64,000 bases of DNA from Candidatus Levyibacteriota bacterium. GTDB taxonomy: Bacteria; Patescibacteriota; Microgenomatia; Levybacterales; UBA12049. The notes beneath the pieces were generated by a model, which did not search any database, was not told where the DNA came from, and worked only from the letters and a program-made list of their open reading frames with translations. This document shows, in pieces, positions 12,258 to 32,052 of this stretch. The first letter of the stretch is position 1. The number at the start of each line of letters is the position of its first letter. Position numbers and translations under genes: made by a program. Location: positions 28,537 through 92,536 of the forward strand of contig JACOXT010000004.1 in assembly GCA_016182235.1 (NCBI GenBank), given 5' to 3'.

Positions 12258-12260
12258 AGG

Positions 12261-14258
12261 CTACTCTTTGGGTTTTTGCTGGTCAAATTGCGTGGCGTTG
12301 GTTTGCAGACTAGGCGGAAAATCATTGATAATTGTTGGTTCGGGCTGGGGCTTACTTGATGGAAAAAGTTTTTCTCTTAGTTCCTCAATGCTCTGCCGAG
12401 AAGATGTGTTGGTAGGGGGAGTTTGGGGTGGGTTATTCTGGTTGGATGGAGTCTCAGGGGGCGGTGGCTGGGGTAATGCCTCTTCTCTTTCTTTTATATC
12501 TTGCGGATTTGTTGTTGCGAGAGTTTTTTCAAAAGGTGCCGCAACTATTTTTATTGCCACATGGGACTGTCCGGCGAAAAATAATCCTTCGCCAACATCA
12601 ACCGCAAGAAGAAGCTCTTTTTCTCCTTTTGAGAGGTAAAATATTTGGGTTACCATGTCTATCTCGGTCGGACTCTGCTTTAGAAGAACTTGAATAGAAG
12701 AATTAGACAATACGGCTTTGCCATAGTCTGTCGAAAGAAAATCCTGAACATCCTGGGTGGCTGTTGTTAACGCCAGATAATACTTGCGTGCCCTTTTGGC
12801 AATCCCATACACGAAAGAGGCAGAATCTGGGTATTTCATCAAATGCCATGCCTCGTCTAAAATAAGAAGTCTTTTCTTAAGGCTGGACCTAACCCTTGTC
12901 CAAACAAAATCCAAGATAATATGCATCGCAATTGACCTAAGATTGTCCTCAAGTCCCCGGATTGAGAAAACAGTAAATGGATTGGTAATATTAAAATTTG
13001 ATTGCTGATTAAATATTCCGGAAAGTGATCCTTTTATGAATTTTTCCAAACGAAGCGCGAGTTCTTGGGCACGGCTTTCTTCCATTCCAAGTAAAACCTT
13101 GTATAAGTCCTCAAGAAGGGGCGGAGTTCTTTTTTGGGTTGACGGATCTATCGTTATACCTTTTTGTCTGTATGTCTCAACCAATGCCCTGTCTAAAATA
13201 GCATCATAGGCGGGGTCAAGGTCTCCCATTACAATTTTAAGAAGCCCATGAAGAGACAGAATCTTAAGCCCCAGCTCGTTTTCTTCTTCTTTGTAAAGCC
13301 CAGCCAGATCAAAGGGGTTAATTTTTATAGGGGATGTTGGGGTAAATACCACATATTCCCCCCCAAGGGTTTTTGTTATAGCCTCATACTCTCCCTCGGG
13401 GTCAATGATTATAATTTCTGTTCCAAACATAAATTGACGCATTGCCTCTAGTTTTATAAGAAAAGACTTTCCGGATCCGGATTTTCCAAAAACAACTTCG
13501 TTGGCGTTTTCAAGCGTAAACCTGTCAAACACAACAAGAGATCCGTTTTGCTGGTTAAGCCCATACATGATTCCCTTGTCTTGGGAGAGCGTTGCTGAAG
13601 TAAAAGGGAAGGTTGACGCAAGAGACGTAGTATCCATATTTCGGGCTATAAACAGATTGTCTACTCCAAGAGGTATGGTTGACTTGAACCCGGCCTCCAT
13701 TTGTAGGGTTGCCCTTTTTGGCAGTATAAGAAGAGAAGCAAGAATGGATTCAAGTCTTTTTGAGGCCTGTTCAATCTCGGGAAGATCTTCGCCATAAAGA
13801 GTTACATACAGACTCATCTGGAAAAATCGCTCAACTCCTTTGGCTAGTTCTTCGGCAAGATTTAACGCGTCATCTAGAGCAGCCTGAACTTTCGCGTCAG
13901 GCACAAGCCCCTGATCAACCTGAGAAGCGATAGTTGCTTCCATTTCCGCGGTTTTACGCCTTATATCAGATAAGACATCCGTAGATGACGTTGGGTATAC
14001 AAACATAGATATGTTAAGAGAATGATTAAAGTCAATAAGGGGAGACAGCCAGTTTGGGGAGACATAGCGAGGATAACCTACGATAAAAAAGGTTTTATAA
14101 AAGTTTTGACCTACTCTTATAAAATTAAAATCCACTTCAACTGAGGATGGCGCTATAACGTCAACAATTGAAACCATTCCTTTCTCAAGGTAAACTAGGG
14201 GTGAATTGGAAGCGCTCTTGTTTTGAGCGGATGTTTTTTTATTATTTTTGAAAAACAT
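12261..14258 (-). CDS. VirB4/TraC/PrgJ-like type IV secretion ATPase
   Basis: Walker A is FGKSGSGKSFLIK and Walker B is RLLILDEAWHLM. Size and N-domain pattern fit VirB4. The C-terminal tail is Pro/Gln-rich. Confidence 0.85.
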   Translation of the reverse strand: MFFKNNKKTSAQNKSASNSPLVYLEKGMVSIVDVIAPSSVEVDFNFIRVGQNFYKTFFIVGYPRYVSPNWLSPLIDFNHSLNISMFVYPTSSTDVLSDIRRKTAEMEATIASQVDQGLVPDAKVQAALDDALNLAEELAKGVERFFQMSLYVTLYGEDLPEIEQASKRLESILASLLILPKRATLQMEAGFKSTIPLGVDNLFIARNMDTTSLASTFPFTSATLSQDKGIMYGLNQQNGSLVVFDRFTLENANEVVFGKSGSGKSFLIKLEAMRQFMFGTEIIIIDPEGEYEAITKTLGGEYVVFTPTSPIKINPFDLAGLYKEEENELGLKILSLHGLLKIVMGDLDPAYDAILDRALVETYRQKGITIDPSTQKRTPPLLEDLYKVLLGMEESRAQELALRLEKFIKGSLSGIFNQQSNFNITNPFTVFSIRGLEDNLRSIAMHIILDFVWTRVRSSLKKRLLILDEAWHLMKYPDSASFVYGIAKRARKYYLALTTATQDVQDFLSTDYGKAVLSNSSIQVLLKQSPTEIDMVTQIFYLSKGEKELLLAVDVGEGLFFAGQSHVAIKIVAAPFEKTLATTNPQDIKEREEALPQPPPPETPSNQNNPPQTPPTNTSSRQSIEELREKLFPSSKPQPEPTIINDFPPSLQTNATQFDQQKPKE

Positions 14259-14260
14259 AT

Positions 14261-14893
14261 TTAGGTAGTTTTTTTAACAATAGGAAATTCGAAATTGCCA
14301 GCGGCTTGATTTATGTGTTCGTATTCCCCGTTATATATTTCGTAAAACAGTCTTACCAAGTCTTCTTTTCCAAGCGTTTTTGCTTGTAAGCCAATTCGCC
14401 CCAATTGTGAATGTATAGACTCTCCTTTAATAGAAAGCCTTGCTTTTGCAGTTTTGAAGAAACTTCCCTGATCTTGTCCTAAGCCTGCCTCCAGGGAAGA
14501 GTGTGAACAAACTATATAAAATTTCTTATCTAAAACAGTATTTATGGTAACAAGTTCCTGTATAAAATCGCGATATTGTTTTATATGGCTTTTTAAAAGA
14601 GGATTCTGGCTTTCCGTAATTTCGTCGTCTAAAAGCTTAAGATATGACGATATATCGACCTTTTTACTTAGGACAACTATTTGGATAGGAAAAGACAGGG
14701 AGTTTAGAAGAGACGAATAAGAGAGCACTTTTGAGTCCTGCTCCTCTTTGGACAAAAGAGCAAAATTAGTCGCTTCAACTTCAATAATCAAACAGGCATT
14801 TCCAGAAGACAGTAAAACGACATTGTCTATAATATCCTGAATCTCAATAAATTTTTGGGTCGTTGTTCGAATTTTTTGGGCAGTTTTTTTCAT
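14261..14893 (-). CDS. Hypothetical protein resembling a VirB4 N-terminal domain, without ATPase motifs
   Basis: 210 aa. FIEIQDIIDNVVLLSSGNACLIIEVEATNFALLSKEEQ parallels the start of the adjacent VirB4-like protein. There is no Walker motif. Confidence 0.4.
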   Translation of the reverse strand: MKKTAQKIRTTTQKFIEIQDIIDNVVLLSSGNACLIIEVEATNFALLSKEEQDSKVLSYSSLLNSLSFPIQIVVLSKKVDISSYLKLLDDEITESQNPLLKSHIKQYRDFIQELVTINTVLDKKFYIVCSHSSLEAGLGQDQGSFFKTAKARLSIKGESIHSQLGRIGLQAKTLGKEDLVRLFYEIYNGEYEHINQAAGNFEFPIVKKTT

Positions 14894-14913
14894 AGTTTCG
14901 ACAAGCTCACTAT

Positions 14914-16113
14914 TTATTTGTCTCCAAAAAGGGATTTCCTAAGTTCCTCTCTTGTGTCTATGGATACGACTTCAAGAGGCATAATTATGTCACCTTTTAC
15001 CGTAATTTCTACGGCATCGAACTTGTGAATTTTCCTTGGGTCTTCAAATTCAATAGTGTAAATGCCGTTTATCAATGGGGTCGCGGAAATAAACCTGCCT
15101 AGCTCATTGGTCTTGAATGCCCTGACAGGATTTCCTTCCTTGTCCTTGACCTCAACCAAAATATTTGCCAGCATATTATCCCTTGAATCTTTTACAATAC
15201 CCGTTACGAGATTTGGGGCGCTTGGAGTTATTGGCAGACCTATATTTTTACCCATGTTTTGAGGTATGCGTATTACATTTTTAGTTTCTGTTTTTGGCAC
15301 AGCAGTAGAGGGAGTAAAGACATTCTTTGGTTTTGTCTCCATTTTTTGTCTTAGGGATAACAGCTCTTGTGCGAGTTGTTCTTTTTGAGAGTTTACTTCC
15401 TGGAGTTTGCTTTCCAGCTCTGAAACTTTTTTATGAGAGAGGTCTTCAGATTGTTTTTGCTCAGTTTGTTTTTGGACAACGGGAATTTGGATCTTTATGG
15501 GTTCGGGAGGTTTTTCTAAAATTGTAGGTATTTGGGGTTTATTTACTAAAGACTTTGGATTGTTAGCCTTCATGGGGGCGGGGGTAGGCGGATTGATAAA
15601 CCTGGGCATGGGTTGATTTTTGGGCGAAGGGGCAATGGCTTTTTGGCTAGCGGAGGTTAAATTGGAAAGAGACGCCAGAAAATTTGCTTCCTTGTCGTCT
15701 AATTTGTTTCCGGGATGTCTAGGAAGAGACCGAAGATACATTTTTAATCTGTCGTTATCGGAGGGTGGCAATTTTTTTATTTCTTTTTTTTGAGCTGGAT
15801 GAATGCTTGGGAAATAAAGTTGTCCTCCTGCTTTTTGATAAACAAATTGGGTTGGACTAATAAGAGCTTTAATAAAATGAGATATCATAGCATCAAGCGG
15901 ACGGCCCTCAACAGGTAAATATGCAAGGCTTATTCCCACGACCGCGAAAAAAACCGAGATTGGAAATTTAATGATAAAAAAAATTGGCATTTGCAAAATA
16001 AGCCATGCAAAAACAATACCTGTTATCAGATAGCTAAACTGCTTTATTGTCATATTGCCGATTAGCTTGAATTGAAATCCCGTTACGTCTTGAGGAATAG
16101 GATGATCTTCCAT
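14914..16113 (-). CDS. PrgI/VirB3-like membrane protein fused to a coiled coil and a carboxypeptidase-regulatory-like beta domain
   Basis: The N-terminus (IPQDVTGFQFKLIGNMTIKQFSYLITG plus 2 TM) looks like the PrgI family. The C-terminus (TGIVKDSRDNMLANILVEVKDKEGNPV) looks like a CarboxypepD_reg fold. Confidence 0.6.
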   Translation of the reverse strand: MEDHPIPQDVTGFQFKLIGNMTIKQFSYLITGIVFAWLILQMPIFFIIKFPISVFFAVVGISLAYLPVEGRPLDAMISHFIKALISPTQFVYQKAGGQLYFPSIHPAQKKEIKKLPPSDNDRLKMYLRSLPRHPGNKLDDKEANFLASLSNLTSASQKAIAPSPKNQPMPRFINPPTPAPMKANNPKSLVNKPQIPTILEKPPEPIKIQIPVVQKQTEQKQSEDLSHKKVSELESKLQEVNSQKEQLAQELLSLRQKMETKPKNVFTPSTAVPKTETKNVIRIPQNMGKNIGLPITPSAPNLVTGIVKDSRDNMLANILVEVKDKEGNPVRAFKTNELGRFISATPLINGIYTIEFEDPRKIHKFDAVEITVKGDIIMPLEVVSIDTREELRKSLFGDK

Positions 16114-16214
16114 ACAAACAGCATATATCGTGAAAAATTAGATTGCAACCCCTACAAAATATATCAAATCTAATAAATTATAAGTGTTTCTGTGAAAAAT
16201 GATAGAATGAAGCA

Positions 16215-16877
16215 ATGATCTATTTACTTTTACTATTTTTGGAAATCGCTTTGTTGTTTTTTCTTTCGCGCGCAGTGAGCCAGGCTCTTTCCCGATTCTT
16301 ATCCATACAAATTTTATCTTTTATTTTTTTGCCCGGGGTTATAATCCATGAGCTGTCCCATATGTTAGTCGCGTCAGTTTTGTTTGTCAGGGTAGGGGAT
16401 ATGGAGTTTTCTCCAAAAATTACAGAAGGAAAGCTCAAGTTGGGGAGTGTGGCAATCGCAAAAACCGACCCAGTAAGAAGGGCAATAATAGGCTTTGCGC
16501 CTGTTTTCACAGGCGTCTTAATAATTCTTGGAATTATATACTTTTTTTCCAATAGCTTCTTGCTCTTTCAGGAAAACCAAATATACATGACGGTATTTAT
16601 GGTTTTGGCAATCATTTATATTTTGTTTGCAATTTCAAATACTATGTTTTCAAGCAGGAGTGATATGGAAGGGACATTAGAGCTTATTATAGTTTTTTTG
16701 GTAATTTTTGCAGTTCTTTATTTTCTTGGCTTTCGTGTTCCTGTTTCTTTTTTAGAATATTTAAATACACCAGGTATCGTAAAGCTTTTCAAAGAAGCAT
16801 GTCTATTTCTTTCCGCGCCGATCGCAATAGACTTTGTTATATTAAGAGGAATTAAGCTTTTTAGAAAAGAATTATGA
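16215..16877 (+). CDS. Polytopic membrane protein with an HExxH motif (putative metalloprotease)
   Basis: 220 aa with about 5 TM helices. GVIIHELSHMLVA sits at a membrane boundary. The gene is embedded, on the opposite strand, in the pilin cluster. Confidence 0.5.
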   Translation: MIYLLLLFLEIALLFFLSRAVSQALSRFLSIQILSFIFLPGVIIHELSHMLVASVLFVRVGDMEFSPKITEGKLKLGSVAIAKTDPVRRAIIGFAPVFTGVLIILGIIYFFSNSFLLFQENQIYMTVFMVLAIIYILFAISNTMFSSRSDMEGTLELIIVFLVIFAVLYFLGFRVPVSFLEYLNTPGIVKLFKEACLFLSAPIAIDFVILRGIKLFRKEL

Positions 16878-16889
16878 ATCCAGCGCCTC

Positions 16890-17216
16890 TCAGCAGCCGA
16901 ATCCAAATGTTTTAATGCAGGGGACTTGAGTGACTTCGAATATAAGGTTTCGTATGAAAAAAGAAAATAGAACAAGCAAAAGCCCCACAATTGCAAATAT
17001 AAGCGTGTTTCTTGCCGATTCAAGAACTTTTGGATCTCCCGCAGAATGCATATACTTATAACCGCTAAAAATTATAAATACCAATGAAGTAATTCCCACA
17101 AACATTAAAAGAGCATTTATGATATTTAAGAAAACAGCAGGAATACAAGAAAGGGTGGCAACGCCATTCTCAACACAGTTAATTTTTAAAAATTCATCCC
17201 ATTGAAACTGAGGCAT
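16890..17216 (-). CDS. T4SS pilin-like protein (VirB2/TrbC-like), paralog 1
   Basis: Two-TM hairpin with the shared motif FSGYKYMHSAGDPKVLESARNTLIFAIVGLLLV. Confidence 0.7.
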   Translation of the reverse strand: MPQFQWDEFLKINCVENGVATLSCIPAVFLNIINALLMFVGITSLVFIIFSGYKYMHSAGDPKVLESARNTLIFAIVGLLLVLFSFFIRNLIFEVTQVPCIKTFGFGC

Positions 17217-17285
17217 AATTTAAGACTAGCAGAGAGAAAGCAAAAAAACAATAGTCTACAAAAAGCGTTTGATAAGCAAGAGAAG

Positions 17286-17750
17286 CTAGGAAGTAGGAGC
17301 AACTATTTTTGGAATCTTTAGATCAGTAAGGCTCAAATCGAAGGCCGCAAGAACAAGAGAAACAATAAAAATTGCCAGGAAAACAACTATAAGTCCGACT
17401 ACAGCGGCGATAATATGGTTTCTTGCCGCCTCAACTTGATCTTTTTCTCCTCTTGAAGTTATCCACTTTACCCCTCCATATAAGAGATACAAAAGTGCAA
17501 TAACAACAGCAATTACTATAATGGCAATTACTATATTGCCTAGTGTTTTAGAAGTTTGGTTTCCACCAATTGCACATAAGACATCAAGAAAGGGATTAAC
17601 TTCTTTACCGGGTCCGACTCCAACACACGGATCCACTTCTGTTTGCGCAAATGCGGGAAAAGCTAAAAGAGGATAAAGGAATGAAGCTTGAATAAAGAGA
17701 AATAATTTCTTCATTAAATTTATAGTAGAGGGTGTTTTCGCATTTGTCAA
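17286..17750 (-). CDS. T4SS pilin-like protein, paralog 2 (likely start at MKKLFLF, nt 17714)
   Basis: It has a signal peptide plus the motif YGGVKWITSRGEKDQVEAARNHIIAAVVGLIVV. Confidence 0.7.
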   Translation of the reverse strand: MTNAKTPSTINLMKKLFLFIQASFLYPLLAFPAFAQTEVDPCVGVGPGKEVNPFLDVLCAIGGNQTSKTLGNIVIAIIVIAVVIALLYLLYGGVKWITSRGEKDQVEAARNHIIAAVVGLIVVFLAIFIVSLVLAAFDLSLTDLKIPKIVAPTS

Positions 17751-17764
17751 GGGGTATCTTAGCT

Positions 17765-18097
17765 TTAATTTGACCCCAAAAGCTTTATTCCAAAAAATCC
17801 TCCTAAAAGACTTAATATAAATATTGTGAAGAAGATAACAAGTAACCCAATAATCGCGTATCTTAATCTTTCTCTGCCGTGAGCGAATCTTTCTTTATCT
17901 CCTCCTGATGTCATCATGTTGAATCCTGCAAGGAAGATGCTATAAACAGAAAAAATAAGCGCAGCAAGAATCAAAAATTCGATGACAACAGCAATGATAT
18001 TTTGGCCTCTTGGGAAAAGCCCGCCAGTCGGCACACCAGTTGGCAAGCCGATATCTATATTCGGAAATCCCGGTATTGAAAACGCAATCTTTTCCAT
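17765..18097 (-). CDS. T4SS pilin-like protein, paralog 3
   Basis: Carries the motif LAGFNMMTSGGDKERFAHGRERLRYAIIGLLVI. Confidence 0.65.
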   Translation of the reverse strand: MEKIAFSIPGFPNIDIGLPTGVPTGGLFPRGQNIIAVVIEFLILAALIFSVYSIFLAGFNMMTSGGDKERFAHGRERLRYAIIGLLVIFFTIFILSLLGGFFGIKLLGSN

Positions 18098-18098
18098 A

Positions 18099-18195
18099 TG
18101 ATTAATGATTGATGATTTCTGATTAATGAAAAAAATAATTATATTTTCTCAATTCTATATTCTTAAATCTTTAATCATTAATCTTAAATCAATTC
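18099..18195. repeat. Inverted pair of heptamer arrays forming a hairpin between two pilin genes
   Basis: The left arm is TGATTAA/TGATTGA/TGATTTC/TGATTAA (18099-18126). The right arm is TCTTAAA/TCTTTAA/TCATTAA/TCTTAAA/TCAATTC (18161-18195). The arms are mutually complementary. Confidence 0.8.
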
Positions 18196-18199
18196 AGTC

Positions 18200-19450
18200 C
18201 TACGGATTGAATCCGGGTATATGCAAAATATCCACTCCAATTACCTGAAGTATTACAAATGAGAATATGATAAACAAAAGCCCGATGATTGCGGATAATA
18301 GCTGGCCTCGAGCCGCCTGAAGAGCTTCCGGATTTCCCTGAGATGCTATGAATCTATATCCTGAAAGAATAATCAAGATTAATGCAATTCCTCCGGCCAA
18401 CCCCAAAACTATGCTATATATACGAGTTACAAAGTCCTTAGGTTGTGTACTAATACCGCCAATCGCTGTGTTAATTGTTCTGCATATTTTGTTATCATCA
18501 TTCTCGTCGGTCGGATTTCCATTCTCGTCAACCCATTCAGTGCAAACAGCAGCATTAGTCGGCGCAATATAAATATCGAAATTTACACACTTATATCGGG
18601 TGACATTATCTTCTACCGCAAATCTGCAGACTTTTCCCTCGGGACAGTTGTTTTTGCCCGGATCGCACTCAGATGTTCCCGGAGGGGCAGGTCGACAACA
18701 AAACTGTCCATTACAATCATCGCTTTTTCCTAAAAGTAGTGCGCCAGCAAAGATTGGACATTCGGAGGCTTTATTAACACAGATATCAGGAGAACTGCAA
18801 GTCACAAGAGTTTTTTGGCAGCATATTTCAGATTTACCACAATAATTTTCTCTTGGTCCCAGCGAATTTCCTCCATCGTTGCGACATTCTCCTTCTGATG
18901 CACAATAATTAGGAGATAGGCAAGCCGTTCCCGGATCTGGCGGAGCTGGTTGGCAGCATATTTCAGGACTCTCACATTTCTTATCTACTAGTGGACTTCC
19001 GTTATTTGTTTTACATTCATCACTTGATGTGCAATAATTGGGGACTGAACACAATTGTTGAATTGGAATTGGGGTGGGGGTGGGGGTAGGAGTAGGGGCA
19101 TCAGCACATTGTAAGGCGTTGCAAAAATTACTGCAGCATTGATTGTTTTGTATACATCCCTTGCCGTTTGATTGGCAGAATGGAGTTGGAGTAGGCGTAG
19201 GTTTGCCGGTTGGGGTGGGAGTGAGTGTTGGAGTAGGAGTTCGTGTGGGCGTTGGGGTCCCGAATTGGTGGGGACAGCTATTGTTCGGATCATCGCAATA
19301 CTGTCCGAAGTCATCTCTTAGACACTGGTCGTTAGGGGAGCATGTGTCAGCGCCGCAGTTGCCATTACAGTGACTTGCTTGCGCGGAATTTACAGGAACT
19401 AAAAAAAGAAGTAAAAACAAAAACAAACCAAATAATACCTTAATCTTCAT
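18200..19450 (-). CDS. Secreted Cys-rich modular protein with a C-terminal T4SS pilin-like domain (pilin fusion)
   Basis: It has a signal peptide, PT linkers, and three CxxP(N/D)xC...EC...(I/F)CC(Q/R)P modules. The C-terminal motif is LSGYRFIASQGNPEALQAARGQLLSAIIGLLFI. Confidence 0.7.
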   Translation of the reverse strand: MKIKVLFGLFLFLLLFLVPVNSAQASHCNGNCGADTCSPNDQCLRDDFGQYCDDPNNSCPHQFGTPTPTRTPTPTLTPTPTGKPTPTPTPFCQSNGKGCIQNNQCCSNFCNALQCADAPTPTPTPTPIPIQQLCSVPNYCTSSDECKTNNGSPLVDKKCESPEICCQPAPPDPGTACLSPNYCASEGECRNDGGNSLGPRENYCGKSEICCQKTLVTCSSPDICVNKASECPIFAGALLLGKSDDCNGQFCCRPAPPGTSECDPGKNNCPEGKVCRFAVEDNVTRYKCVNFDIYIAPTNAAVCTEWVDENGNPTDENDDNKICRTINTAIGGISTQPKDFVTRIYSIVLGLAGGIALILIILSGYRFIASQGNPEALQAARGQLLSAIIGLLFIIFSFVILQVIGVDILHIPGFNP

Positions 19451-21648: not shown

Positions 21649-22011
21649 CTAAAAGGTTTTCCAGTTGTTTCGAAGATTAGTAAGTTTTCCTCCTAATAAC
21701 AGGTATCTATTGATAAGGTCGTTGCAAAAATTCTTTTCCCAAAAAACTAAATCTCTTGCCAAGCTGATATGGACTTCCATTTCATTACAAGATCCAATTG
21801 CTGAATCTAAATGCAGCTTGAATTGTTTATCAAATCTTCTTTTTGCCCAACCTTCTGCAATATTTGCAGGAACAGATTTAGAGGCTTTTCTTAACTGCAA
21901 GCCAAGGTCATTCCTTTCAAATAGGGGAAGTTTATTAACATTTCTATTAACTGTAAGAGCTAATTCGTAGGCTTCTTTATACACTTCCAAATCTCTAAAG
22001 CTCTTGATCAT
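21649..22011 (-). CDS. Four-helix-bundle protein (23S rRNA intervening-sequence protein family)
   Basis: 120 aa. FRDLEVYKEAYELALTV and ANIAEGWAKR motifs are typical of this family. Confidence 0.8.
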   Translation of the reverse strand: MIKSFRDLEVYKEAYELALTVNRNVNKLPLFERNDLGLQLRKASKSVPANIAEGWAKRRFDKQFKLHLDSAIGSCNEMEVHISLARDLVFWEKNFCNDLINRYLLLGGKLTNLRNNWKTF

Positions 22012-22026
22012 AAATAGAGTTTATAG

Positions 22027-22089
22027 TTTCTACCTTCCATCTTCAACCCTCAAAGTACTATCTTCTACCTTCTACTTTCTATCGTCTAA
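22027..22089. repeat. Pyrimidine-rich heptamer array (9 units), right arm, inverted relative to 21584-21646
   Basis: The units are TTTCTAC CTTCCAT CTTCAAC CCTCAAA GTACTAT CTTCTAC CTTCTAC TTTCTAT CGTCTAA. The reverse complement aligns unit by unit with the left arm at roughly 75% identity. Confidence 0.85.
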
Positions 22090-22202: not shown

Positions 22203-25200
22203 ATGAAACAGGAATTATTGAACCAAACCTTGACAAGCCCACCTCAAACACCCTATTCTAGGGATGGAGCTATTTTTATGGAGGTAGTGAAAGATATGCC
22301 TAATTCCGCAAACCAACCCAAAAACCCAGAGAGAACAGAAAATAGGCCTTTAGATAAAGTAAGGGTAGAAGTAAACAACACATCCAAAAAAGAAGAAACT
22401 TCTTCAAAATCTCCCCAGTCAGTTTCCGAAGAAAAGAAGGGGTCTCCTGTCGAAGCAAAAATTACAAAAGTCGATTCTAAAAAAATAGATAATGAGGAGT
22501 TAAGAAAAGAATGGCATAAAGTATTTACACCAGAAGAGTTAAAAAATCCCGATACAAGATCAACTATAGAATTAGCTATCAAACTGGGCTATAGTCCTGA
22601 GAGCATTACATCAAAAGGCCCATTGGAATTTAAAGCAAAAGATGTTATCGCAAATGCTTTACTTGATGATCAACAGCGCATTGAGAAGGCTGAAGAACTG
22701 CTTGGGCGATCTTTGTCAATAAAACAACGAGAATTACTTCTGAAAGCACACTATGCATCAAAAGGTAAGACTGGTAAAGATGGTCGTGGGGCAGGAGTGT
22801 TCAATTTAGAAAGAAAACAACTTGCAGAAGAAGCAAGGATACTTAGTAACGAAGAAGGTTTTACTGACAAAGAAAGACGTATACTTATTGAAGCTGGTCT
22901 AGCAGCAACTCTTATTCCTAATATCTATACGGATCCCACTTTGCAACTTATTGCCGAACAATACATTAATGAGGTAAACCGTATAAATGCAACTAATCCA
23001 AGTGAACATGTAGACCCCAATTTTCTCATTCGACTAATGACTGATGTTGAAAGACGAGCTCGTGACGGCCTAGTAGACAGAACGCAAGCACTAAATCTAC
23101 TAAATGAATTTCAAACCATATTTGCTGATGAGAATCCTGCTCAAGGAGAGAGCCCTTTGACTAGAGAGATTAATCTAATCAAAGGTCTGCAAGGACAAGA
23201 CAGAAGGGATGCATTACTTAATTTATTGAGGGCTTATCCTCCCCTGAGTGCTCCTTTACCGCACGAAATTATAGAATTAACAATGGAGGATGATGAATCC
23301 TTTGAATCCTTAGTCAATAGAATTGTTTCTCTTCCACTTGACAAAGAGACCTCTGACTATACTCTCGGACTCTATGGCTCAGGAAATCTTGAAACGATTA
23401 GCGATGCACTTACTCAAAAATTAGATACTGAGACAGATCCCGATGAGAGAGATAGACTTAGTAGGTTAAAAGATAGATTTAATCTGGCTACAGAATCATT
23501 TACTTTAACCCACAATATGAATACTCGAATAGTCACTGGAGAAATACAGGAATTTATTCGTACCGCGGAAAGAATTCTACCCCCTCATCTTAATTATCTT
23601 CAAAAATTAAACGGTGTAAGCGAAGCGATGAGAATTTATGAAGAAACCTATGATAGATATCTTGCAAAGTATGGATGGATGTATCCTTTTGCATCAGTAC
23701 TATTGCATTACGAAGTTTTCAGCAAGCTAAGAGAACTAAATGATGCGGGGGGGCTTGGCGTAGCAAAGGCAATGGATGGGGAACTAAGATTAATAAAACT
23801 GGAAGAGTGGGAGTTAAGAAGAGCATATAATATAGCAAGAAAATTTTATAACAATACATTTAGATCATCAGAAAAAGTTGCTACCGGGACAGTCCCTCGC
23901 AATATGGAAGGTGAGGAGAGACAGGAAATATTGGCAGAAATCCAAGACGCGATAGATTCAGGAAACACAAATAAAGAGGCTTTACTTAGAAATGAACTGG
24001 CTGACGCTGAAGAAAGGGGACAATCTAGGTATTCTTCTTTTGCGTTAGAATCAGCTGCCAGAATTATGAATCCAATACAGCTTCTTATATATCGTTTTCA
24101 AATAGCGGGTGAGGAACATGGATTGGTTTTCCTTAAAAAAGCAAAAGAGTACTATCTAGAATTTTTGAGACATAACTATAAACTTGGAATAAATAAAATA
24201 ACCACTCTTGGTGGGGTAAACGTTGAAGAGATGGAGGTTGGAGGAGTATTTGGGGTTTCAGGATTCTATAGTTCATGGAGAACAGAAAATATCGCCATAA
24301 GCCAGATGAAAGTTAATATTGGTGGACAGGAATTAACAATAAGAAGATGGTTAGCGGAAACTACATATGAAATTGAACAAGCTAATACGGCATTCAAAGA
24401 TGCAGGGCAGAATAGACAGTTAAAGCATAACGCGCAAGTACAATTAGCTGATGCCCTAAAGCCCCTTATTGATAATGTTCATGTTGGATTAGGCATGTTG
24501 TTAAGACAGCCAGCTTTTGGTGGTGAAATAGGTTATGAAGCAAGAAAGTTACTATGGGAGAAAATTGTGAAAGGAAATGATCCAGCAAACAATAATCCAA
24601 GGGAAGGAAATCTAGATGTAGCAATAAACTATTTAACAAAGTTAAAAATTCAGGATGGAAGTATAAGATCACTAGAAGAAATTAAATCAAGTGGTGGAAA
24701 TTATTGGGACGTTCCTTCAGGAGACCCATTGACGACTCCATGGGAAATACTGAGAAGAAAAATTCTTTTGCAACATCAGAAAAATATTAGGAAATCGTTT
24801 GATACTAATGTCAATTTAATTCCTGATCAAGATTTTGATGCAAATGAAACTCGTTTAATACTTACAATTAAAGAAGAAGGCAGAAAGCTCGCTCAACATC
24901 TGGCCGACATATCATTTCCATATGTACCCTTCATGAATGACGCGCCTTTCGAAATTTTTGATTATACGCTGGCAGGAGACGAGGTTTATAGAAGAAGGGC
25001 AGGAGGAGATATACCTAGCTATTTTGAAGGGTCTAACGCGTTTGTGGCTATTGTTGATAATCCTGGCGGAATTGGTGATGAAAAAGCAATGGAGAATTTC
25101 CTTAAGCTTGAAAGAGGAGTTGAATCTCCTCAAGGACGACCAGATGCCCAAAGAAGAACATACCCACTTTTTAAAGCTTGGCTAGAATGGGTAATGACCA

Positions 25201-25502
25201 AGCCTGGACAAAGACAAGAGCAATTTAAAGCGATTAAGCAAACATTATTACATCCTACCTCTGAAGCACAGGAACATTCAGGTATGGAGGCAATGTCAAT
25301 AAATGAAGAACAAGCAAGAAAGTTTATAGACCATGCTGTATTAGCAAACTTTTTGAATGAGGAGCTGGCAGATGAGCTAAAAAAGGAAAAAAATCTTAAA
25401 TTTGTAGGTATGCTTTGGGCACTCTTTAGAGATATGTTTATTACAGTTATTCCTGCAGCTGTCGTATATAGCTTTGGTAAAGAGGTATTGAAAACAAAGT
25501 GA
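22203..25502 (+). CDS. Large hypothetical protein (1099 aa) with a C-terminal TM anchor
   Basis: A long uninterrupted ORF, mostly helical and charged, with no motif I recognise. The C-terminal hydrophobic helix is FVGMLWALFRDMFITVIPAAVVYSFG. Confidence 0.6.
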   Translation: MKQELLNQTLTSPPQTPYSRDGAIFMEVVKDMPNSANQPKNPERTENRPLDKVRVEVNNTSKKEETSSKSPQSVSEEKKGSPVEAKITKVDSKKIDNEELRKEWHKVFTPEELKNPDTRSTIELAIKLGYSPESITSKGPLEFKAKDVIANALLDDQQRIEKAEELLGRSLSIKQRELLLKAHYASKGKTGKDGRGAGVFNLERKQLAEEARILSNEEGFTDKERRILIEAGLAATLIPNIYTDPTLQLIAEQYINEVNRINATNPSEHVDPNFLIRLMTDVERRARDGLVDRTQALNLLNEFQTIFADENPAQGESPLTREINLIKGLQGQDRRDALLNLLRAYPPLSAPLPHEIIELTMEDDESFESLVNRIVSLPLDKETSDYTLGLYGSGNLETISDALTQKLDTETDPDERDRLSRLKDRFNLATESFTLTHNMNTRIVTGEIQEFIRTAERILPPHLNYLQKLNGVSEAMRIYEETYDRYLAKYGWMYPFASVLLHYEVFSKLRELNDAGGLGVAKAMDGELRLIKLEEWELRRAYNIARKFYNNTFRSSEKVATGTVPRNMEGEERQEILAEIQDAIDSGNTNKEALLRNELADAEERGQSRYSSFALESAARIMNPIQLLIYRFQIAGEEHGLVFLKKAKEYYLEFLRHNYKLGINKITTLGGVNVEEMEVGGVFGVSGFYSSWRTENIAISQMKVNIGGQELTIRRWLAETTYEIEQANTAFKDAGQNRQLKHNAQVQLADALKPLIDNVHVGLGMLLRQPAFGGEIGYEARKLLWEKIVKGNDPANNNPREGNLDVAINYLTKLKIQDGSIRSLEEIKSSGGNYWDVPSGDPLTTPWEILRRKILLQHQKNIRKSFDTNVNLIPDQDFDANETRLILTIKEEGRKLAQHLADISFPYVPFMNDAPFEIFDYTLAGDEVYRRRAGGDIPSYFEGSNAFVAIVDNPGGIGDEKAMENFLKLERGVESPQGRPDAQRRTYPLFKAWLEWVMTKPGQRQEQFKAIKQTLLHPTSEAQEHSGMEAMSINEEQARKFIDHAVLANFLNEELADELKKEKNLKFVGMLWALFRDMFITVIPAAVVYSFGKEVLKTK

Positions 25503-25549: not shown

Positions 25550-27172
25550 TTAACGAAACATGCGTTTGAGTACTCCTTGTATTCCTTCAGCCTTAGTAGG
25601 AGAAGGCAATTTAGATTTATAGGCAACTATTGTCCCTACAGTTTCCCTACCTATTCCAATCGCACCTCCGACTGGTGCAAAAGCAGATCCGGTCTCAACC
25701 TTTGGAGCCTTGAGCATAGCTTTGAGCATGTTGACGACATTCGGCGTCATAAGAATAATGCCAAGCCCAATTAAAGCTCCGATATGATCTTCGTTGGCGC
25801 GGGCTCCAATAAGAGGAGGAACGAACAAGGTATTTTCCGGAAATCCGCCAAAAGCTGCCATAAATACTTTTCCAAGTAAAAACATGGCAATTACAGCAGG
25901 AAATGCGGCGAGATTTGCGATCAAATCTCGGAACCATCCTCCAACATTTATCGGACTTCCAGGAATTAATCCGCCAATAATCCAAAATGGTGCTAAGATA
26001 ACATCAATTAATATATGAACATAAGCAAAAAGAAGAGTAAACCAAAGTCTAAAAAGAGCAATTAAAAGTGCAATTGAGATTATTATAAAAGCAAGAAATC
26101 CAACAAACGTACCTAGTACTACGTGAAGCATTTTGAATAGTATATCTGCAACTGCATTTGTTGCTACATTTTCTATATTGGTAATCCAATTAAGAGGGTT
26201 CCACCATGTGCCTCCTTCGCCTGCACCAGGAAGAGCCACACCAACAACTACTTTAGACACAAATGTAGAAAAACTATTTAAAAAAGGGTCATAAAAATTT
26301 GCAAGAACTTCACTAATTGCTAGAGAAGGTTCTTCTATAAGCCTCCACATTCCACCATAAGCATTTCCTCCTCCTGCGCCAACTTCTGCTGCTGCTGAGA
26401 AAGGATTAGTTTTTTGTGAAAGTTGCGTAGGAAGACTTTTGTCTAATCCAGCGGAATCAACAATAAGATTACCAATTACATGAGTTGATACATACATCAT
26501 GTCTATCAAAAACCCCGCTATAGCATAGGAAAAAGTTACAAGAAGTATGCCGATTATAATTTTGGGTATCTGGTTTTGGATAGACATTACAGTTCTAGGA
26601 TCAATTTTTACTCTAAGCATAATTGCGAGTCCTATAACAACAAATACCAAAACAAAGAAAAGATAAACGATATTTCTAAATCCTTCCCACACCCTTAGAA
26701 GTGGTTTAAGTCCTTCAAACCCAGTTCCTGTTTGAGCATAAGCTATTTTTGAAATACCGAAATTCTGCGCCAGATATTGAAAATAGTCGCCGGTACGAAG
26801 AGGGGGAGTATAAAGAGAGGCTATCAAATTGTTCATTCCTCCAATTGCTCCTCCAATCTCTCCTTTTTCCAAATCCCCTTTTGGCAAAAAACCAATTTTT
26901 CCTGTTTTCGGATCAGCTCCAAGGCAGGTGCCTTTGGGATTTGTAGGATCAATGCCTGAAATCTGGCAGGAAAGCGCGCTTGCTACCTCAATCATCACAG
27001 TCTGAGTCCAGTTATGTAAGTTATTTGGAACTTCGGGGTTGGTATTGGGAGGTGGAGGATTTATTCGGGGAAGCTCTTGAGCATTGACTGAAGTAGGAAG
27101 TAGGAAGTATGAAGTAAGAAGTAAGAGAGCAGAGAAAATGAAAACAAAAAGGAGTCGGGCAGGAATTTTCAT
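25550..27172 (-). CDS. VirB6/TrbL-like polytopic membrane protein
   Basis: 540 aa with a signal peptide and then at least 6 TM helices. The size and topology match T4SS channel subunits found next to VirB4 in Gram-positive/CPR loci. The assignment rests on context and topology only. Confidence 0.5.
   Translation of the reverse strand: MKIPARLLFVFIFSALLLLTSYFLLPTSVNAQELPRINPPPPNTNPEVPNNLHNWTQTVMIEVASALSCQISGIDPTNPKGTCLGADPKTGKIGFLPKGDLEKGEIGGAIGGMNNLIASLYTPPLRTGDYFQYLAQNFGISKIAYAQTGTGFEGLKPLLRVWEGFRNIVYLFFVLVFVVIGLAIMLRVKIDPRTVMSIQNQIPKIIIGILLVTFSYAIAGFLIDMMYVSTHVIGNLIVDSAGLDKSLPTQLSQKTNPFSAAAEVGAGGGNAYGGMWRLIEEPSLAISEVLANFYDPFLNSFSTFVSKVVVGVALPGAGEGGTWWNPLNWITNIENVATNAVADILFKMLHVVLGTFVGFLAFIIISIALLIALFRLWFTLLFAYVHILIDVILAPFWIIGGLIPGSPINVGGWFRDLIANLAAFPAVIAMFLLGKVFMAAFGGFPENTLFVPPLIGARANEDHIGALIGLGIILMTPNVVNMLKAMLKAPKVETGSAFAPVGGAIGIGRETVGTIVAYKSKLPSPTKAEGIQGVLKRMFR
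27090..27124. repeat. Heptamer array GAAGTAG x5 inside the VirB6-like signal-peptide region
   Basis: The units are GAAGTAG GAAGTAG GAAGTAT GAAGTAA GAAGTAA. On the minus strand they are translated as LLLTSYFLLPTS. Confidence 0.85.
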
Positions 27173-27209
27173 TCTTTCTTAGTTTGGATTATTCTTTCAC
27201 AAAAGTCAA

Positions 27210-27234: not shown

Positions 27235-27525
27235 TCATTCGACGTGGCGTCCCGTCGGATGACGGGACGGACCCCCTCTTTTTATAATATCACGGTACTG
27301 TTGTTTTAGCATACGTATACCCTCTGTAGATTTCAGATACTTTTCTCTTCTGATCGCATCACTCTTCAACAGATAAGCTTCATAGCCAATAAGCTTAACA
27401 GGTCTGGAACTTTTTGTTGATTTAACTTTACCGCTTTGATGATCTTTAATTCTTAGTCGTAAATCGTTTGACTGGCCTTTATAAATATTTCCACTTGATA
27501 ACATCAGGAAATAAACATAGTGCAT
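27235..27525 (-). CDS. GIY-YIG domain protein (UPF0213-like small nuclease)
   Basis: It has YVYFLMLSSGNIYKGQSNDLRLRIKDH (GIY...YxG) and an REKYLK motif. Its start codon is 2 nt from the tRNA-Ser(GGA) 3' end. Confidence 0.8.
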   Translation of the reverse strand: MHYVYFLMLSSGNIYKGQSNDLRLRIKDHQSGKVKSTKSSRPVKLIGYEAYLLKSDAIRREKYLKSTEGIRMLKQQYRDIIKRGGPSRHPTGRHVE

Positions 27526-27526
27526 G

Positions 27527-27613
27527 CGGTGAGGGAGGGATTCGGACCCTCGATAGTCTTACGACTATGCACGCTCTCCAAGCGTGTCGATTCAACCGCT
27601 CTCGCACCTCACC
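27527..27613 (-). tRNA. tRNA-Ser(GGA)
   Basis: The acceptor is GGTGAGG/CCTCACC and the anticodon stem-loop is CACGC-TTGGAGA-GCGTG. It has a long variable arm and the T-loop GGTCCGAATCC. CCA is not encoded. Confidence 0.85.
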
Positions 27614-28052
27614 TTATTATTTTTTTGGCTTCTTGCCAAACTTTTTTGTCCGATGGGTAAGTCAGTCTTTTTTCAACCACATCTATTGGCAGCCATTCAA
27701 CATTTTCCATCTCCAGATCATGCTTACTTATATCGCCAGAAACATATTTCATTAGAAAATAATACACTTTTTTCTTGATTGTCTCATTCTGAAATTTAAA
27801 CCAATATTCTACCGGAGTTAGAGCCTTAATAATTTTCGCATCAACTCCTGTTTCTTCTCTGACTTCCCTAAGTGCTGCTTCCTCTTTTGTTTCTCTTCTT
27901 GATTCCTGATTCCTAATTCCTGATTCCTTCTTATCGATTAATCCTTTTGGAAAAACCCATCCATGATGTTGAGAGTGCTGCGCAACCAAAATAAATGTCT
28001 GGCCACTTTCTTTTTTATAAACTACTCCTCCAGCTGAAAATTGAAATTTCAT
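27609..28052 (-). CDS. NUDIX hydrolase
   Basis: The Nudix box is split by an insert: FPKGLIDKKE-[SGIRNQESRR]-ETKEEAALREVREETG. The stop codon overlaps the tRNA-Ser(GGA) 5' end. Confidence 0.8.
   Translation of the reverse strand: MKFQFSAGGVVYKKESGQTFILVAQHSQHHGWVFPKGLIDKKESGIRNQESRRETKEEAALREVREETGVDAKIIKALTPVEYWFKFQNETIKKKVYYFLMKYVSGDISKHDLEMENVEWLPIDVVEKRLTYPSDKKVWQEAKKIIR
27899..27926. repeat. Heptamer array TGATTCC x4 inside the NUDIX gene
   Basis: The units are TGATTCC TGATTCC TAATTCC TGATTCC. Confidence 0.85.
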
Positions 28053-28054
28053 AG

Positions 28055-28129
28055 TGTCCCCGGCGGGAGTTGAACCCGCAAATCTTCAGGTTCGGAACCT
28101 GACGCTCTATCCAATTGAACTACGAGGAC
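28055..28129 (-). tRNA. tRNA-Arg(CCG)
   Basis: GTCCTCGTAGTTCAATTGGATAGAGCGTCAGGTTCCGAACCTGAAGATTTGCGGGTTCAACTCCCGCCGGGGACA. The anticodon loop is TTCCGAA. Confidence 0.85.
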
Positions 28130-28136
28130 TCCAATG

Positions 28137-28222
28137 CGGAGAGAGTGAGATTCGAACTCACGGTCGCCTAAGGCGACAGCGGTTTTCGAAACCGCCGCAC
28201 TCGTCCACTATGCGATCTCTCC
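28137..28222 (-). tRNA. tRNA-Ser(CGA)
   Basis: The acceptor is GGAGAGA/TCTCTCC and the anticodon loop is TTCGAAA. It has a long variable arm and the T-arm GTGAGTTCGAATCTCAC. Confidence 0.85.
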
Positions 28223-28241
28223 CATTTTCGACTTTCTTTGG

Positions 28242-28314
28242 TGTGCCCGGTGGGAGTTGAACCCGCAATCGCTGGGTCCGCAACCCAGTGCTCTATCCAT
28301 TAAGCTACGGGCAC
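28242..28314 (-). tRNA. tRNA-Arg(GCG), with a C-A mismatch in the T stem
   Basis: GTGCCCGTAGCTTAATGGATAGAGCACTGGGTTGCGGACCCAGCGATTGCGGGTTCAACTCCCACCGGGCACA. The anticodon loop is TTGCGGA. Confidence 0.7.
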
Positions 28315-28315
28315 A

Positions 28316-28432
28316 GAGAGTAGAAAACAGAAAGTAAAAAGCTGAAGGTAGATTATTGGAAATGTTTAACTCCATCCTCTAGCTTCTATCATCAAAATAC
28401 TATCTTCTACCTTCCATCTTCCACCGTCTATT
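28316..28432. repeat. Heptamer-array hairpin without cargo (6 purine-rich units, 12-nt spacer, 9 pyrimidine-rich units)
   Basis: The left arm is GAGAGTA GAAAACA GAAAGTA AAAAGCT GAAGGTA GATTATT (28316-28357). The right arm is CTCCATC CTCTAGC TTCTATC ATCAAAA TACTATC TTCTACC TTCCATC TTCCACC GTCTATT (28370-28432). The right arm closely matches the reverse complement of 21584-21646. Confidence 0.85.
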
Positions 28433-28469
28433 TTATCCTATTGCAGATTATGAAGCAAATTTGACTAGA

Positions 28470-29096
28470 TTAACTTGTCTTTTCCAGGGGGAAATTGCGG
28501 GATAGCCAATCGCCGGATTTCTCCATGAATGTTGGTTTTATATATTCCCTATACGGAAGATAGGGGAGTAAGGCTGTCTTAATATGTTCTCGATCTACAT
28601 TCCCAAGCGTCAATGTTAATTCGCCGGGAATAAATGAATGAGTTCGTATATGAACAACATCTACTCCCTCTCTTTTTTTAAAGTAGAAGTCATATAATTC
28701 CTGCCAGAGGAAAAAATGATCCTCTATTGTTAGTCCTTCTGTACTTATTCTATAGCGGAAATTTGAAGGCGGAACCGTATTTAAGGCAAAAGCGACAAAC
28801 ACTAAAGACGCAACAACAAGCATCAAGAGGTATTGAGAAAATAGAAAAAGAATAATTTCAATAAGAAGCATTATTAGAATACTTGTTAAATAATATTGAC
28901 TGCCTCTTTTTCTAAAAGGTCTCCCGGGAGCACTCCACTCAAGTAGTGTTTTAATCTCATGTAGGTTATCGTCATGATGAATATTTTTAGTTTGCTGAGG
29001 ATCATTTTTGTCAACTTGAGGCTCAGAAAGCTCGAGAGGCTCTTTGGGGAGATCCAAGGGCTCTTTTGGAAGAAAAGGTTGTTCTTGAGCAGCCAT
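28470..29096 (-). CDS. Hypothetical 2-TM membrane protein (PH-like C-terminal domain)
   Basis: 208 aa, with an N-terminal repeated PKEPL(D/E)L, a central TM hairpin and a soluble C-domain. Confidence 0.5.
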   Translation of the reverse strand: MAAQEQPFLPKEPLDLPKEPLELSEPQVDKNDPQQTKNIHHDDNLHEIKTLLEWSAPGRPFRKRGSQYYLTSILIMLLIEIILFLFSQYLLMLVVASLVFVAFALNTVPPSNFRYRISTEGLTIEDHFFLWQELYDFYFKKREGVDVVHIRTHSFIPGELTLTLGNVDREHIKTALLPYLPYREYIKPTFMEKSGDWLSRNFPLEKTS

Positions 29097-29164
29097 ACAT
29101 TTATAGTATAGCAGTATTTAGTATTAGTCAAGATAAGAGAATGATGATATAATAAGTTTGTCTG

Positions 29165-29254
29165 GGAGGAGTCGCATAGCTTGGTCAATTGCGAGGGTTT
29201 GCTAAACCCTTGAGCAATAAAATGCTCGCGTGGGTTCGAATCCCACCTCCTCCG
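29165..29254 (+). tRNA. tRNA-Ser(GCU)
   Basis: The acceptor is GGAGGAG/CTCCTCC and the anticodon loop is TTGCTAA. It has a long variable arm and the T-arm GTGGGTTCGAATCCCAC. Confidence 0.85.
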
Positions 29255-29277
29255 CTTCACCCCGCTAAGCGGGGTAG

Positions 29278-29364
29278 GGAGAGGTCGCATAGTGGCCGAG
29301 TGCGGATGTCTTGAAAACATCTAAGATAGTAATATCTTCGCGAGTTCGAATCTCGCCCTCTCCG
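29278..29364 (+). tRNA. tRNA-Ser(UGA)
   Basis: The acceptor is GGAGAGG/CCTCTCC and the anticodon stem-loop is GATGT-CTTGAAA-ACATC. It has a long variable arm and the T-arm GCGAGTTCGAATCTCGC. Confidence 0.85.
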
Positions 29365-29390
29365 CCCTCAATTTCTGCTAAACTGATTCC

Positions 29391-31690: not shown

Positions 31691-32048
31691 GGGGATGAAC
31701 TGATTCGACGAGAATGCACTTTAAAAAACAGCAAGCCGACATTGATTGAAAGTCGTAAAACTCAATCAAAATATAAATGCTAACGATCAAAATCGTTATG
31801 CGTTCGCTTACGCCTAATAACGTTTAGGGAACTGTTTATAGAGTCTTTTCTCAATGGGACTTTATAAGCATAAATACAGTTGAGAAATAGTAAGGAAAGT
31901 TGGTTTTTGTCCTTATCGAATTTATAAACCTTGGTGTTATTGATTCTTGTTGATTAGAAAAAAATAGCGCGACTCAAAATAATCAACTAAGCTTGTAGAA
32001 GTTTTTAATGTAAATTCTTGGACTCCGGTTCATTGCCGGACATCTCCA
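31691..32048 (+). ncRNA. ssrA: tmRNA (SsrA)
   Basis: The 5' end is GGGGATGAACTGATTCGACG. The 3' end has a tRNA-like T-arm (TCCGGTTCATTGCCGGA) and acceptor CATCTCC-A, with a G3-U pair. The tag ORF at 31779-31817 is GCT AAC GAT CAA AAT CGT TAT GCG TTC GCT TAC GCC TAA TAA, giving ANDQNRYAFAYA. Confidence 0.9.
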
Positions 32049-32052
32049 CACA

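Follow-up and report, generated by a model that had tools for sequence, protein, structure and literature searches.

The question raised by this locus is whether a heptanucleotide repeat placed inside a signal peptide could turn a secretion-channel subunit on and off. The repeat is the array at 27090-27124 (minus strand) of a 64,000-nucleotide (nt) stretch of a Candidatus Levyibacteriota genome (contig JACOXT010000004.1, positions 28,537 to 92,536), referred to here as the window, and all coordinates count from the window's first letter. The array consists of five 7-nt units and occupies codons 16-28 (nt 48-82) of an open reading frame (ORF) at 25550-27172 (-). This ORF, with its ATG at 27172, encodes a 540-aa polytopic membrane protein, a candidate divergent VirB6/TrbL of a Levybacteria system resembling a type IV secretion system (T4SS). 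The explanation favoured here, with a probability of roughly 0.55, is that the array is a tolerated coding microsatellite homogenised by slippage, produced by a lineage-specific 7-nt process, and that its frame and length are held by selection.

On the window strand, the units are GAAGTAG, GAAGTAG, GAAGTAT, GAAGTAA and GAAGTAA, and the coding strand reads CTTACTT CTTACTT CATACTT CCTACTT CCTACTT. Tandem Repeats Finder identified 27090-27123 as a repeat of period 7 with 4.9 copies and 92% matches, and block shuffles of the window gave approximately no arrays of such quality at any period, which places the array far beyond chance. The period-7 repeat of five units reported in an earlier note, made from the letters alone, is thus confirmed. 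However, its description there as GAAGTAG x5 with exact 7-nt periodicity is overstated, since six of the seven positions in the unit are invariant and the seventh varies as G, G, T, A, A. The tract is interrupted twice and includes three unit variants, and runs of identical units never exceed two.

The unit is pyrimidine-rich on the coding strand, stop-free in every phase and reads L-L-P-T-S-Y-F, and units of the CTACTTC type give LLPTSYF, a 7-aa product of three-phase translation at the N-terminus. The array translates as (L)LLLTSYFLLPT(S), with all three phases used, inside MKIPARLLFVFIFSALLLLTSYFLLPTSVNA|QE, and the part of the signal peptide that it encodes is LLLTSYFLLPTS. The location in the core of the N-terminal signal peptide, also proposed in the note, is therefore borne out. 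The coding region of the signal peptide covers 31 codons (27080-27172, minus strand) and includes the n-region MKIPAR, a hydrophobic core and VNA|QE; read from the sequence, its n-h-c layout is MKIPAR / LLFVFIFSALLLLTSYFLL / PTSVNA|QE. The N-terminus is predicted to be a Sec-type (type I) signal peptide, with a putative V-N-A cleavage site assigned by the -3/-1 rule, and an A-x-A-Q motif at this site is conserved among orthologues. The AlphaFold2 (AF2) model of the protein has a helix at residues 5-23 and disorder at 25-40. A weak leftover period-7 signal was found in the segment encoding LLFVFIFSAL, upstream of the array.

When one or two units were added or removed in silico, a stop arose at codon 35-53 and the product was 34-52 aa long, while adding or removing three units kept the frame and gave a signal peptide of 24 or 38 aa. 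A change of one unit does therefore shift the frame, as the note had anticipated, approximately 25 codons after the start. On this basis the array could be a contingency locus, a slipped-strand switch of the neuO type acting on the VirB6-like subunit, in which selection for mutability keeps the tract periodic. Its place in codons 16-28, where a change of one or two units truncates the product, is consistent with such a switch, as are the probable role of the product in cell-surface machinery and the precedent of neuO, in which AAGACTC repeats lie just after the start codon (PMC3046976). As in contingency genes, the repeat is at the 5' end, its unit is not divisible by three, and the change of one unit abolishes the product in silico. 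What was not found is a long uninterrupted tract (there are five units in three variants), or any copy-number difference or coexistence of ON and OFF alleles among the sequences compared, which are consensus assemblies. Interrupted microsatellite tracts are expected to undergo little slippage. With at most two identical units in a row, the tract is therefore predicted to be comparatively stable, with a low rate of slippage.

Copy number was compared at several levels. The array is identical in the window and in two independent Logan assemblies (L001 and L002, from SRR12113420 and SRR12113430), though three consensus assemblies give this comparison low power. Within each of nine clusters formed by orthologues that share at least 90% identity (approximately 25 sequences), the N-termini differed by point changes only, with no change in length. 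None of 85 sequences, comprising 80 orthologous loci and five apparently truncated homologues, was an out-of-frame allele. The protein is alone in its own 90% cluster, and the matches listed included no truncated protein nearly identical to it. A search of the JGI metagenomes with a flank-plus-gap pattern for the window array found no copy-number variant, and a metagenome scan for the perfect array shared by loci L010 and L062 found three contigs and no length variant; these contigs are identical re-assemblies and hence add no information. The switch idea is accordingly mechanically valid but unsupported: the frameshift logic holds, and neither length variation nor an OFF allele was found. Of the two outcomes that the note had named as counting against a switch, an invariant copy number was observed (on thin data), whereas the second, orthologues having the same peptide without nucleotide periodicity, was not, as orthologues retain the periodicity.

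The five apparently truncated homologues (P0007, P0012, P0105, P0107 and P0134) were considered as OFF alleles and rejected. They are start-calling artefacts, because an intact signal peptide lies upstream of each called start and in frame with it. Public gene calls thus miss the true start in these five homologues (loci L083-L087), and the N-termini in L083, L084 and L087 are encoded by heptamer repeats.

The array is one of many. In the window, three to five strong arrays were found at period 7, with no more than one at each of the other periods from 4 to 15 and no more than two at period 14. A comparison set of 1.27 Mb, drawn from the 80 orthologous Levybacteria loci, contained 29 arrays at period 7, nine at period 14 and between none and two at the other periods. 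There was no excess at periods divisible by three, even within genes. In both the window and the related loci, tandem repeats are in excess at period 7 alone. Of 63 arrays in the window and the loci together, 37 lie within ORFs and 26 outside, and arrays are approximately six times denser per base outside ORFs, an estimate that assumes a coding density of ~90%. Within ORFs, 27 of the 37 fall in the first 45 codons. Unit sequences are unrelated to one another (for example GAATCAG, TTCTATT, TAGCGTC and AATTTCC). The in-ORF units that were inspected have no stop in any phase of the coding strand, whereas several intergenic units contain TAA or TAG, as would be expected if arrays arose without regard to sequence and were then filtered by selection.

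Other strong arrays in the window are in frame in housekeeping genes, where they form loop insertions in glyceraldehyde-3-phosphate dehydrogenase (GAPDH), phosphoglycerate kinase (PGK; two arrays) and a Nudix protein. The GAPDH array (56603-56633, plus strand, in the ORF 56417-57499) consists of 4.4 perfect units of AATTTCC. Its product, LNFQFPISNFQS, falls within an insertion of ~24 aa that solved GAPDHs lack. GAPDH orthologues from four other species have the same peptide, in nearly the same codons, at that loop, and the remainder of the insert resembles a decayed AATCAAA array. In the PGK ORF (48510-49616, plus strand), the first array (48768-48803) has 5.1 units of TTAAGTA and occupies codons 85-98, while the second (49361-49391) has 4.4 units of AAGYGAA and lies at an 8-aa insertion relative to solved PGK. 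Both PGK arrays have a perfect 14-nt higher-order structure. The Nudix array (27896-27929, minus strand) lies upstream of the VirB6-like gene in the ORF 27609-28052 and has 4.7 units of the GAATCAG type. The established Nudix consensus is GX5EX7REUXEEXGU. In the window protein, 18 residues separate the Glu from REVREETG, compared with the canonical seven, giving an 11-aa insert of the size of the array. Arrays with drifted units occur at the same site in L010, L018 and L021, and L016 carries a GAATCAG-type array outside any ORF called there.

The presence of equivalent arrays in GAPDH and PGK, where switching the gene off makes no sense, argues against use of this array as an on/off switch. 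Length variation in GAPDH clusters was assessed as a possible series of heptamer steps and rejected, being mostly due to differences in start calls. In the cluster of P0180 (P0288-P0292, 90% identity), members are distinguished in the repeat-bearing loop by a tandem duplication of 18 nt (ISNDQS). No other indel polymorphism was seen where repeats are present, and this one is no heptamer step.

Taking at least 16 of 21 matches as a period-7 signal in orthologues, approximately 20 of the 80 carry one inside or just before the signal peptide. Perfect arrays occur in L010, L012, L062 and L063, and some perfect arrays in orthologues reach ~5.5 units; among the array-bearing orthologues, copy number is ~4.3-5.6, as aligned and counted by eye. 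The arrays recur at three sub-sites, namely the 5' untranslated region (5'UTR), the n-region and the h-region, sometimes with two in tandem. At the 5'UTR sub-site, between TTGACA-N18-AAACTA and the ATG, they are of the TAGCGTY type and extend over ~33 nt (L003, L004, L068 and L083). Those in the n-region are of the TCATTAA, TCATTTT or AATTTTC types, and those in the h-region are of the TTCTAYY type. In a codon alignment, 13 of 14 orthologues are in register as CTA YTY TCT AYY TTC TAT YTT CTA YYT TCY. The unit differs by species, being TTCTCTA in L010 and L062 and TTCTATT in L012, whereas L056 alternates TTTCTAT and CTTCTAT. The CTTCCTA-type unit of the window differs from that of the closest relative, L009, in all units. 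By these alignments, the arrays of orthologues have evolved in concert. In other species the GAPDH and Nudix arrays, too, are found in the corresponding place, with units that have drifted. The array has decayed in some orthologues (L026 as compared with L056).

Strong arrays at the 5' end were found in 16 of 79 ORFs of the VirB6-like family and in 14 of 645 other ORFs (odds ratio 11, p = 4e-9, with the orthologues non-independent). Arrays are thus concentrated at the 5' end in this gene family, a hotspot that a contingency locus would predict.

Preservation of the repeat at synonymous sites was assessed using pairs of orthologues with the same amino acid in a given column, for which the fraction with a different codon was recorded. 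In the VirB6-like gene, codons differed in 181 of 577 comparisons (31%) in array columns and in 11649 of 20366 (57%) in the rest of the gene. For GAPDH, compared across five species, the corresponding values were 18 of 140 (13%) and 1323 of 2830 (47%). Leu is encoded by CTA or CTT at fixed array columns in 13 orthologues, and L010 and L062, in which the gene is ~75-80% identical overall, share an identical run of at least 44 nt across the array. The suppression of codon differences indicates that the 7-nt periodicity is preserved beyond the requirements of the protein, in an essential enzyme as well.

These data bear directly on an explanation by selection on the protein alone, under which the LLPTSYF-type peptide matters and the nucleotide periodicity is incidental. 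An S-x-F-Y-F/L-L-x-S motif does recur in the signal peptides of orthologues, as this would require. However, synonymous sites should then vary, yet codon differences are halved in the array and the Leu codons are fixed, and the same periodicity is found in non-coding 5'UTRs and intergenic DNA. Moreover, the cores of signal peptides normally accept almost any hydrophobic sequence. Selection on the peptide alone is contradicted by the codon data and is very improbable.

Conservation of periodicity at synonymous sites is also what a contingency locus would produce, but GAPDH, for which switching is implausible, shows it as well. Further observations are at odds with that explanation. No copy-number difference was found in the three assemblies, the nine clusters or the L010/L062 re-assemblies, and the 80 loci and five suspicious calls are all in frame. 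The tract, interrupted twice in the window, has always ~5 units, as compared with 2-93 in neuO. In addition, virB6 is essential for epibiotic growth of S. epibionticum, a Saccharimonadia strain from another class of Patescibacteria (PMC12102498), and the product here is likely to be essential. A switch maintained by selection for mutability is thus considered unlikely.

A third explanation gives the arrays a function as nucleic acid, through a factor that would recognise tandem 7-nt periodicity in DNA or mRNA, or ascribes them to a dedicated activity of this lineage, specific to heptamers, that writes repeats or acts by gene conversion. This would account for the strict 7-nt specificity with no excess at multiples of three, for orthologous positions kept while units change in concert, and for the suppression of synonymous change even in the essential GAPDH. 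It is also compatible with the estimated excess of arrays outside ORFs and with the location of some of them between the -10 box and the ATG. However, the unit sequences are unrelated, and therefore no sequence-specific binder fits. A role in RNA structure was rejected, as the 5' 120 nt of the RNA fold no better than shuffled sequences (z = 0.17), and no Rfam family overlaps 27090-27124. No candidate enzyme was identified, and some orthologous arrays have decayed. Such an element or activity is rated as quite improbable.

A broader proposal is that a heptamer-specific process, be it a dedicated activity (repeat generation or gene conversion) or selection acting on the 7-nt periodicity as such, installs arrays of ~5 x 7 nt and keeps their periodicity across species, and that at the VirB6-like gene this additionally provides low-frequency heritable OFF/ON heterogeneity of the T4SS-like system for host interaction. 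It covers the arrays in 5'UTRs as well as those in frame in GAPDH, PGK, the Nudix gene and the candidate for the missing VirB6, and as a whole is regarded as doubtful.

In the favoured explanation, that of a tolerated microsatellite, a lineage-wide, 7-nt-specific repeat process would generate arrays in Levybacteria, and this particular array would by chance supply part of a Sec signal peptide's hydrophobic core. It would be tolerated there because its unit, pyrimidine-rich and free of stops, gives hydrophobic and small residues whichever phase is read. The array is probably old, because ~20 species have an array at this position in their orthologues. From time to time, slippage during replication or template switching would re-homogenise the units and keep the periodicity, while selection would remove length changes that break the frame or the signal peptide, so that ~5 units are retained. 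As a slip of one unit knocks the gene out, rare OFF cells must arise, but these would be a by-product and not a tuned switch. From the sequences compared, we infer both the mechanism of homogenisation and the absence of an adaptive role in switching.

Several points weigh against this explanation. The purity of a 5' repeat in a gene for surface machinery is also expected from selection for mutability, and the clustering of 27 of the 37 in-ORF arrays in the first 45 codons resembles a signature of phase variation, for which N-terminal enrichment of frameshifting repeats has been used elsewhere (PMC3315296). In essential genes, homogenisation by slippage would pass via lethal frameshifts, barring steps of three units or out-and-back template switching, and neither of these was observed in the sequences compared. 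Plain slippage does not explain well the 7-nt specificity or the suppression of synonymous change in essential genes. The population data are also thin, as they include three assemblies of the organism and consist of consensus sequences, in which minority alleles may be hidden.

Among known systems, the closest in form is neuO of the E. coli K1 prophage CUS-3, which includes an AAGACTC heptanucleotide variable number tandem repeat, three units of which encode a heptad of 7 aa (PMC3046976). Both repeats have a 7-nt unit in 5' coding sequence, are translated in three phases and, unless the change is a multiple of three units, shift the frame and truncate the protein. However, neuO has perfect units in 2-93 copies that vary between isolates, with documented ON/OFF switching, whereas this array has five imperfect, invariant units. 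The neuO repeat is a dispensable extension, and this array is part of a signal peptide and one of many arrays, some of which lie in essential genes. The wide copy range and dispensable peptide of a neuO-type locus are thus lacking, with ~5 units in every array-bearing orthologue aligned. The simple sequence repeat contingency loci of Haemophilus, Neisseria and Campylobacter likewise combine a 5' repeat with a surface-associated function (PMC3315296), but there the tracts are long and perfect and vary from strain to strain, and no polymorphism was found here.

The Levybacteria arrays have a dispersed, lineage-wide 7-nt excess with several unrelated units in common with the short tandemly repeated repetitive (STRR) sequences of cyanobacteria. 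STRR heptanucleotide repeats were reportedly described by Mazel et al. in 1990. They are mainly intergenic, longer and found in heterocystous cyanobacteria. They differ in their cyanobacterial host and specific units, whereas the Levybacteria units are different and varied, and many of the arrays are in frame in genes. In Borgs, the lengths of in-gene repeat units are divisible by three, and these repeats change fast in evolution. By contrast, the unit here is 7 nt, the frame is kept by total length only, and the arrays are old and positionally conserved. Borg tandem repeats arise inside ORFs and create disordered protein regions (PMC9879509), and share with the Levybacteria arrays the addition of peptide segments by in-ORF tandem repeats. 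No description of heptamer arrays in bacteria that belong to the candidate phyla radiation (CPR) or in Levybacteria was found in the literature searches.

A real switch would amount to the first indication that the host-contact machinery of a CPR episymbiont undergoes phase variation, but the evidence is unsupportive. As a switch the array is of modest interest; as a conserved heptamer-array phenomenon it is more notable. The oddity is that in-frame 7-nt arrays occur in essential glycolytic enzymes, are positionally conserved and show synonymous change at no more than about half the usual level. This bears on the origin of new protein loops and signal-peptide cores, and on the limits and drivers of microsatellite dynamics in minimal genomes. 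It also bears on annotation, given that five homologues with repeat-encoded or low-complexity N-termini have called starts that miss the true ones.

The protein that carries the array is 100% identical to HYT07_03595 from the metagenome-assembled genome of an uncultured Candidatus Levybacteria organism (CPR, Microgenomatia). Pfam gave nothing meaningful for it even at E <= 10, NCBIfam gave no match, and no solved structure was matched in a PDB sequence search with family profiles of 20 and 101 sequences. An AF2 model built on 101 homologues (predicted local distance difference test score, pLDDT, of 78.9; predicted template modelling score, pTM, of 0.66) is a bundle of very long helices. An earlier model from 20 sequences was discarded as too poor (pLDDT 53.5). 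In a Foldseek search of the PDB, TrwI/VirB6 chains of the R388 T4SS (PDB 7o3v) filled ranks 1-5, with weak scores (E of 0.07-0.3, a probability of 0.99 for the best, and template modelling (TM) scores of 0.2-0.4).

The protein thus appears to share with VirB6/TrbL, as represented by TrwI of R388, the organisation of a polytopic membrane protein with long helices and the presence of T4SS genes nearby, but differs in that the structural match is limited to E = 0.07 and TM of 0.2-0.4, with no profile match. The UniRef label of homologue P0108 is TrbL/VirB6. VirB4/TraG-like, PrgI and T4SS-pilin genes lie ~6-15 kb from the gene, with unrelated genes between. The label VirB6-like used in the earlier note is therefore plausible though unproven: it agrees with the weak structural match, which is the best one, with the T4SS genes in the window and with the name of the UniRef homologue, but not with the lack of a Pfam or NCBIfam match. 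According to a 2025 survey, Microgenomatia have few VirB6 homologues, "suggesting extreme sequence divergence" (PMC12102498), and the 540-aa family is a candidate for the highly divergent VirB6.

The T4SS-like gene set spans 10719-19450 on the minus strand. It includes a 512-aa ORF with no family label (10719-12257), a VirB4/TraG-like ATPase (12261-14258) that lies 11 kb from the VirB6-like gene, a PrgI/VirB3-like protein of the PrgI family (14914-16113), and a 416-aa protein with a C-terminal T4SS-pilin domain (18200-19450).

A putative promoter for the VirB6-like gene (27180-27209, minus strand) consists of TTGACT (27204-27209), an 18-nt spacer and AAACTA (27180-27185), followed by 7 nt to the ATG. 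A TTGACA-N18-AAACTA element ~7 nt before the ATG is conserved across orthologues, though a consensus promoter scan did not recover the putative promoter at 27180-27209. Because the promoter-like element ends ~7 nt before the ATG, its position suggests that the mRNA is leaderless.

Several further repeats lie outside genes. A degenerate TTCTAYC array (22028-22088, with no strand assigned) occupies the divergent intergenic region between the gene for a 1099-aa protein and that for a 23S-rRNA-intervening-sequence protein (~21649-22011), directly upstream of the latter. Degenerate intergenic arrays of period 7 or 14 were also found at 18098-18190, downstream of the pilin-domain gene, and at 28313-28423, beside a tRNA-Arg gene. 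Longer non-coding arrays are present in the comparison loci: a TAATTCC array of at least 17 units with an assembly gap within it (L039, 5345-5568), an ACTCATA array of at least eight units at a contig end (L047, 17575-17635), and five units of CTTAGCT at a contig start (L082, 1-39). Heptamer arrays can thus grow long outside genes and break assemblies.

The gene for the 1099-aa protein (22203-25502, plus strand), which has no Pfam or NCBIfam match, adjoins the VirB6-like gene in convergent orientation. In L001/L002 and in L083-L087, a gene for a protein of ~950-1200 aa is arranged in the same way, and the gene pair is therefore conserved. On the other side of the VirB6-like gene are six tRNA genes (four for Ser and two for Arg; 27235-29366), where a GIY-YIG ORF (27235-27525) abuts a tRNA-Ser gene, and a tmRNA gene is located at 31691-32049.

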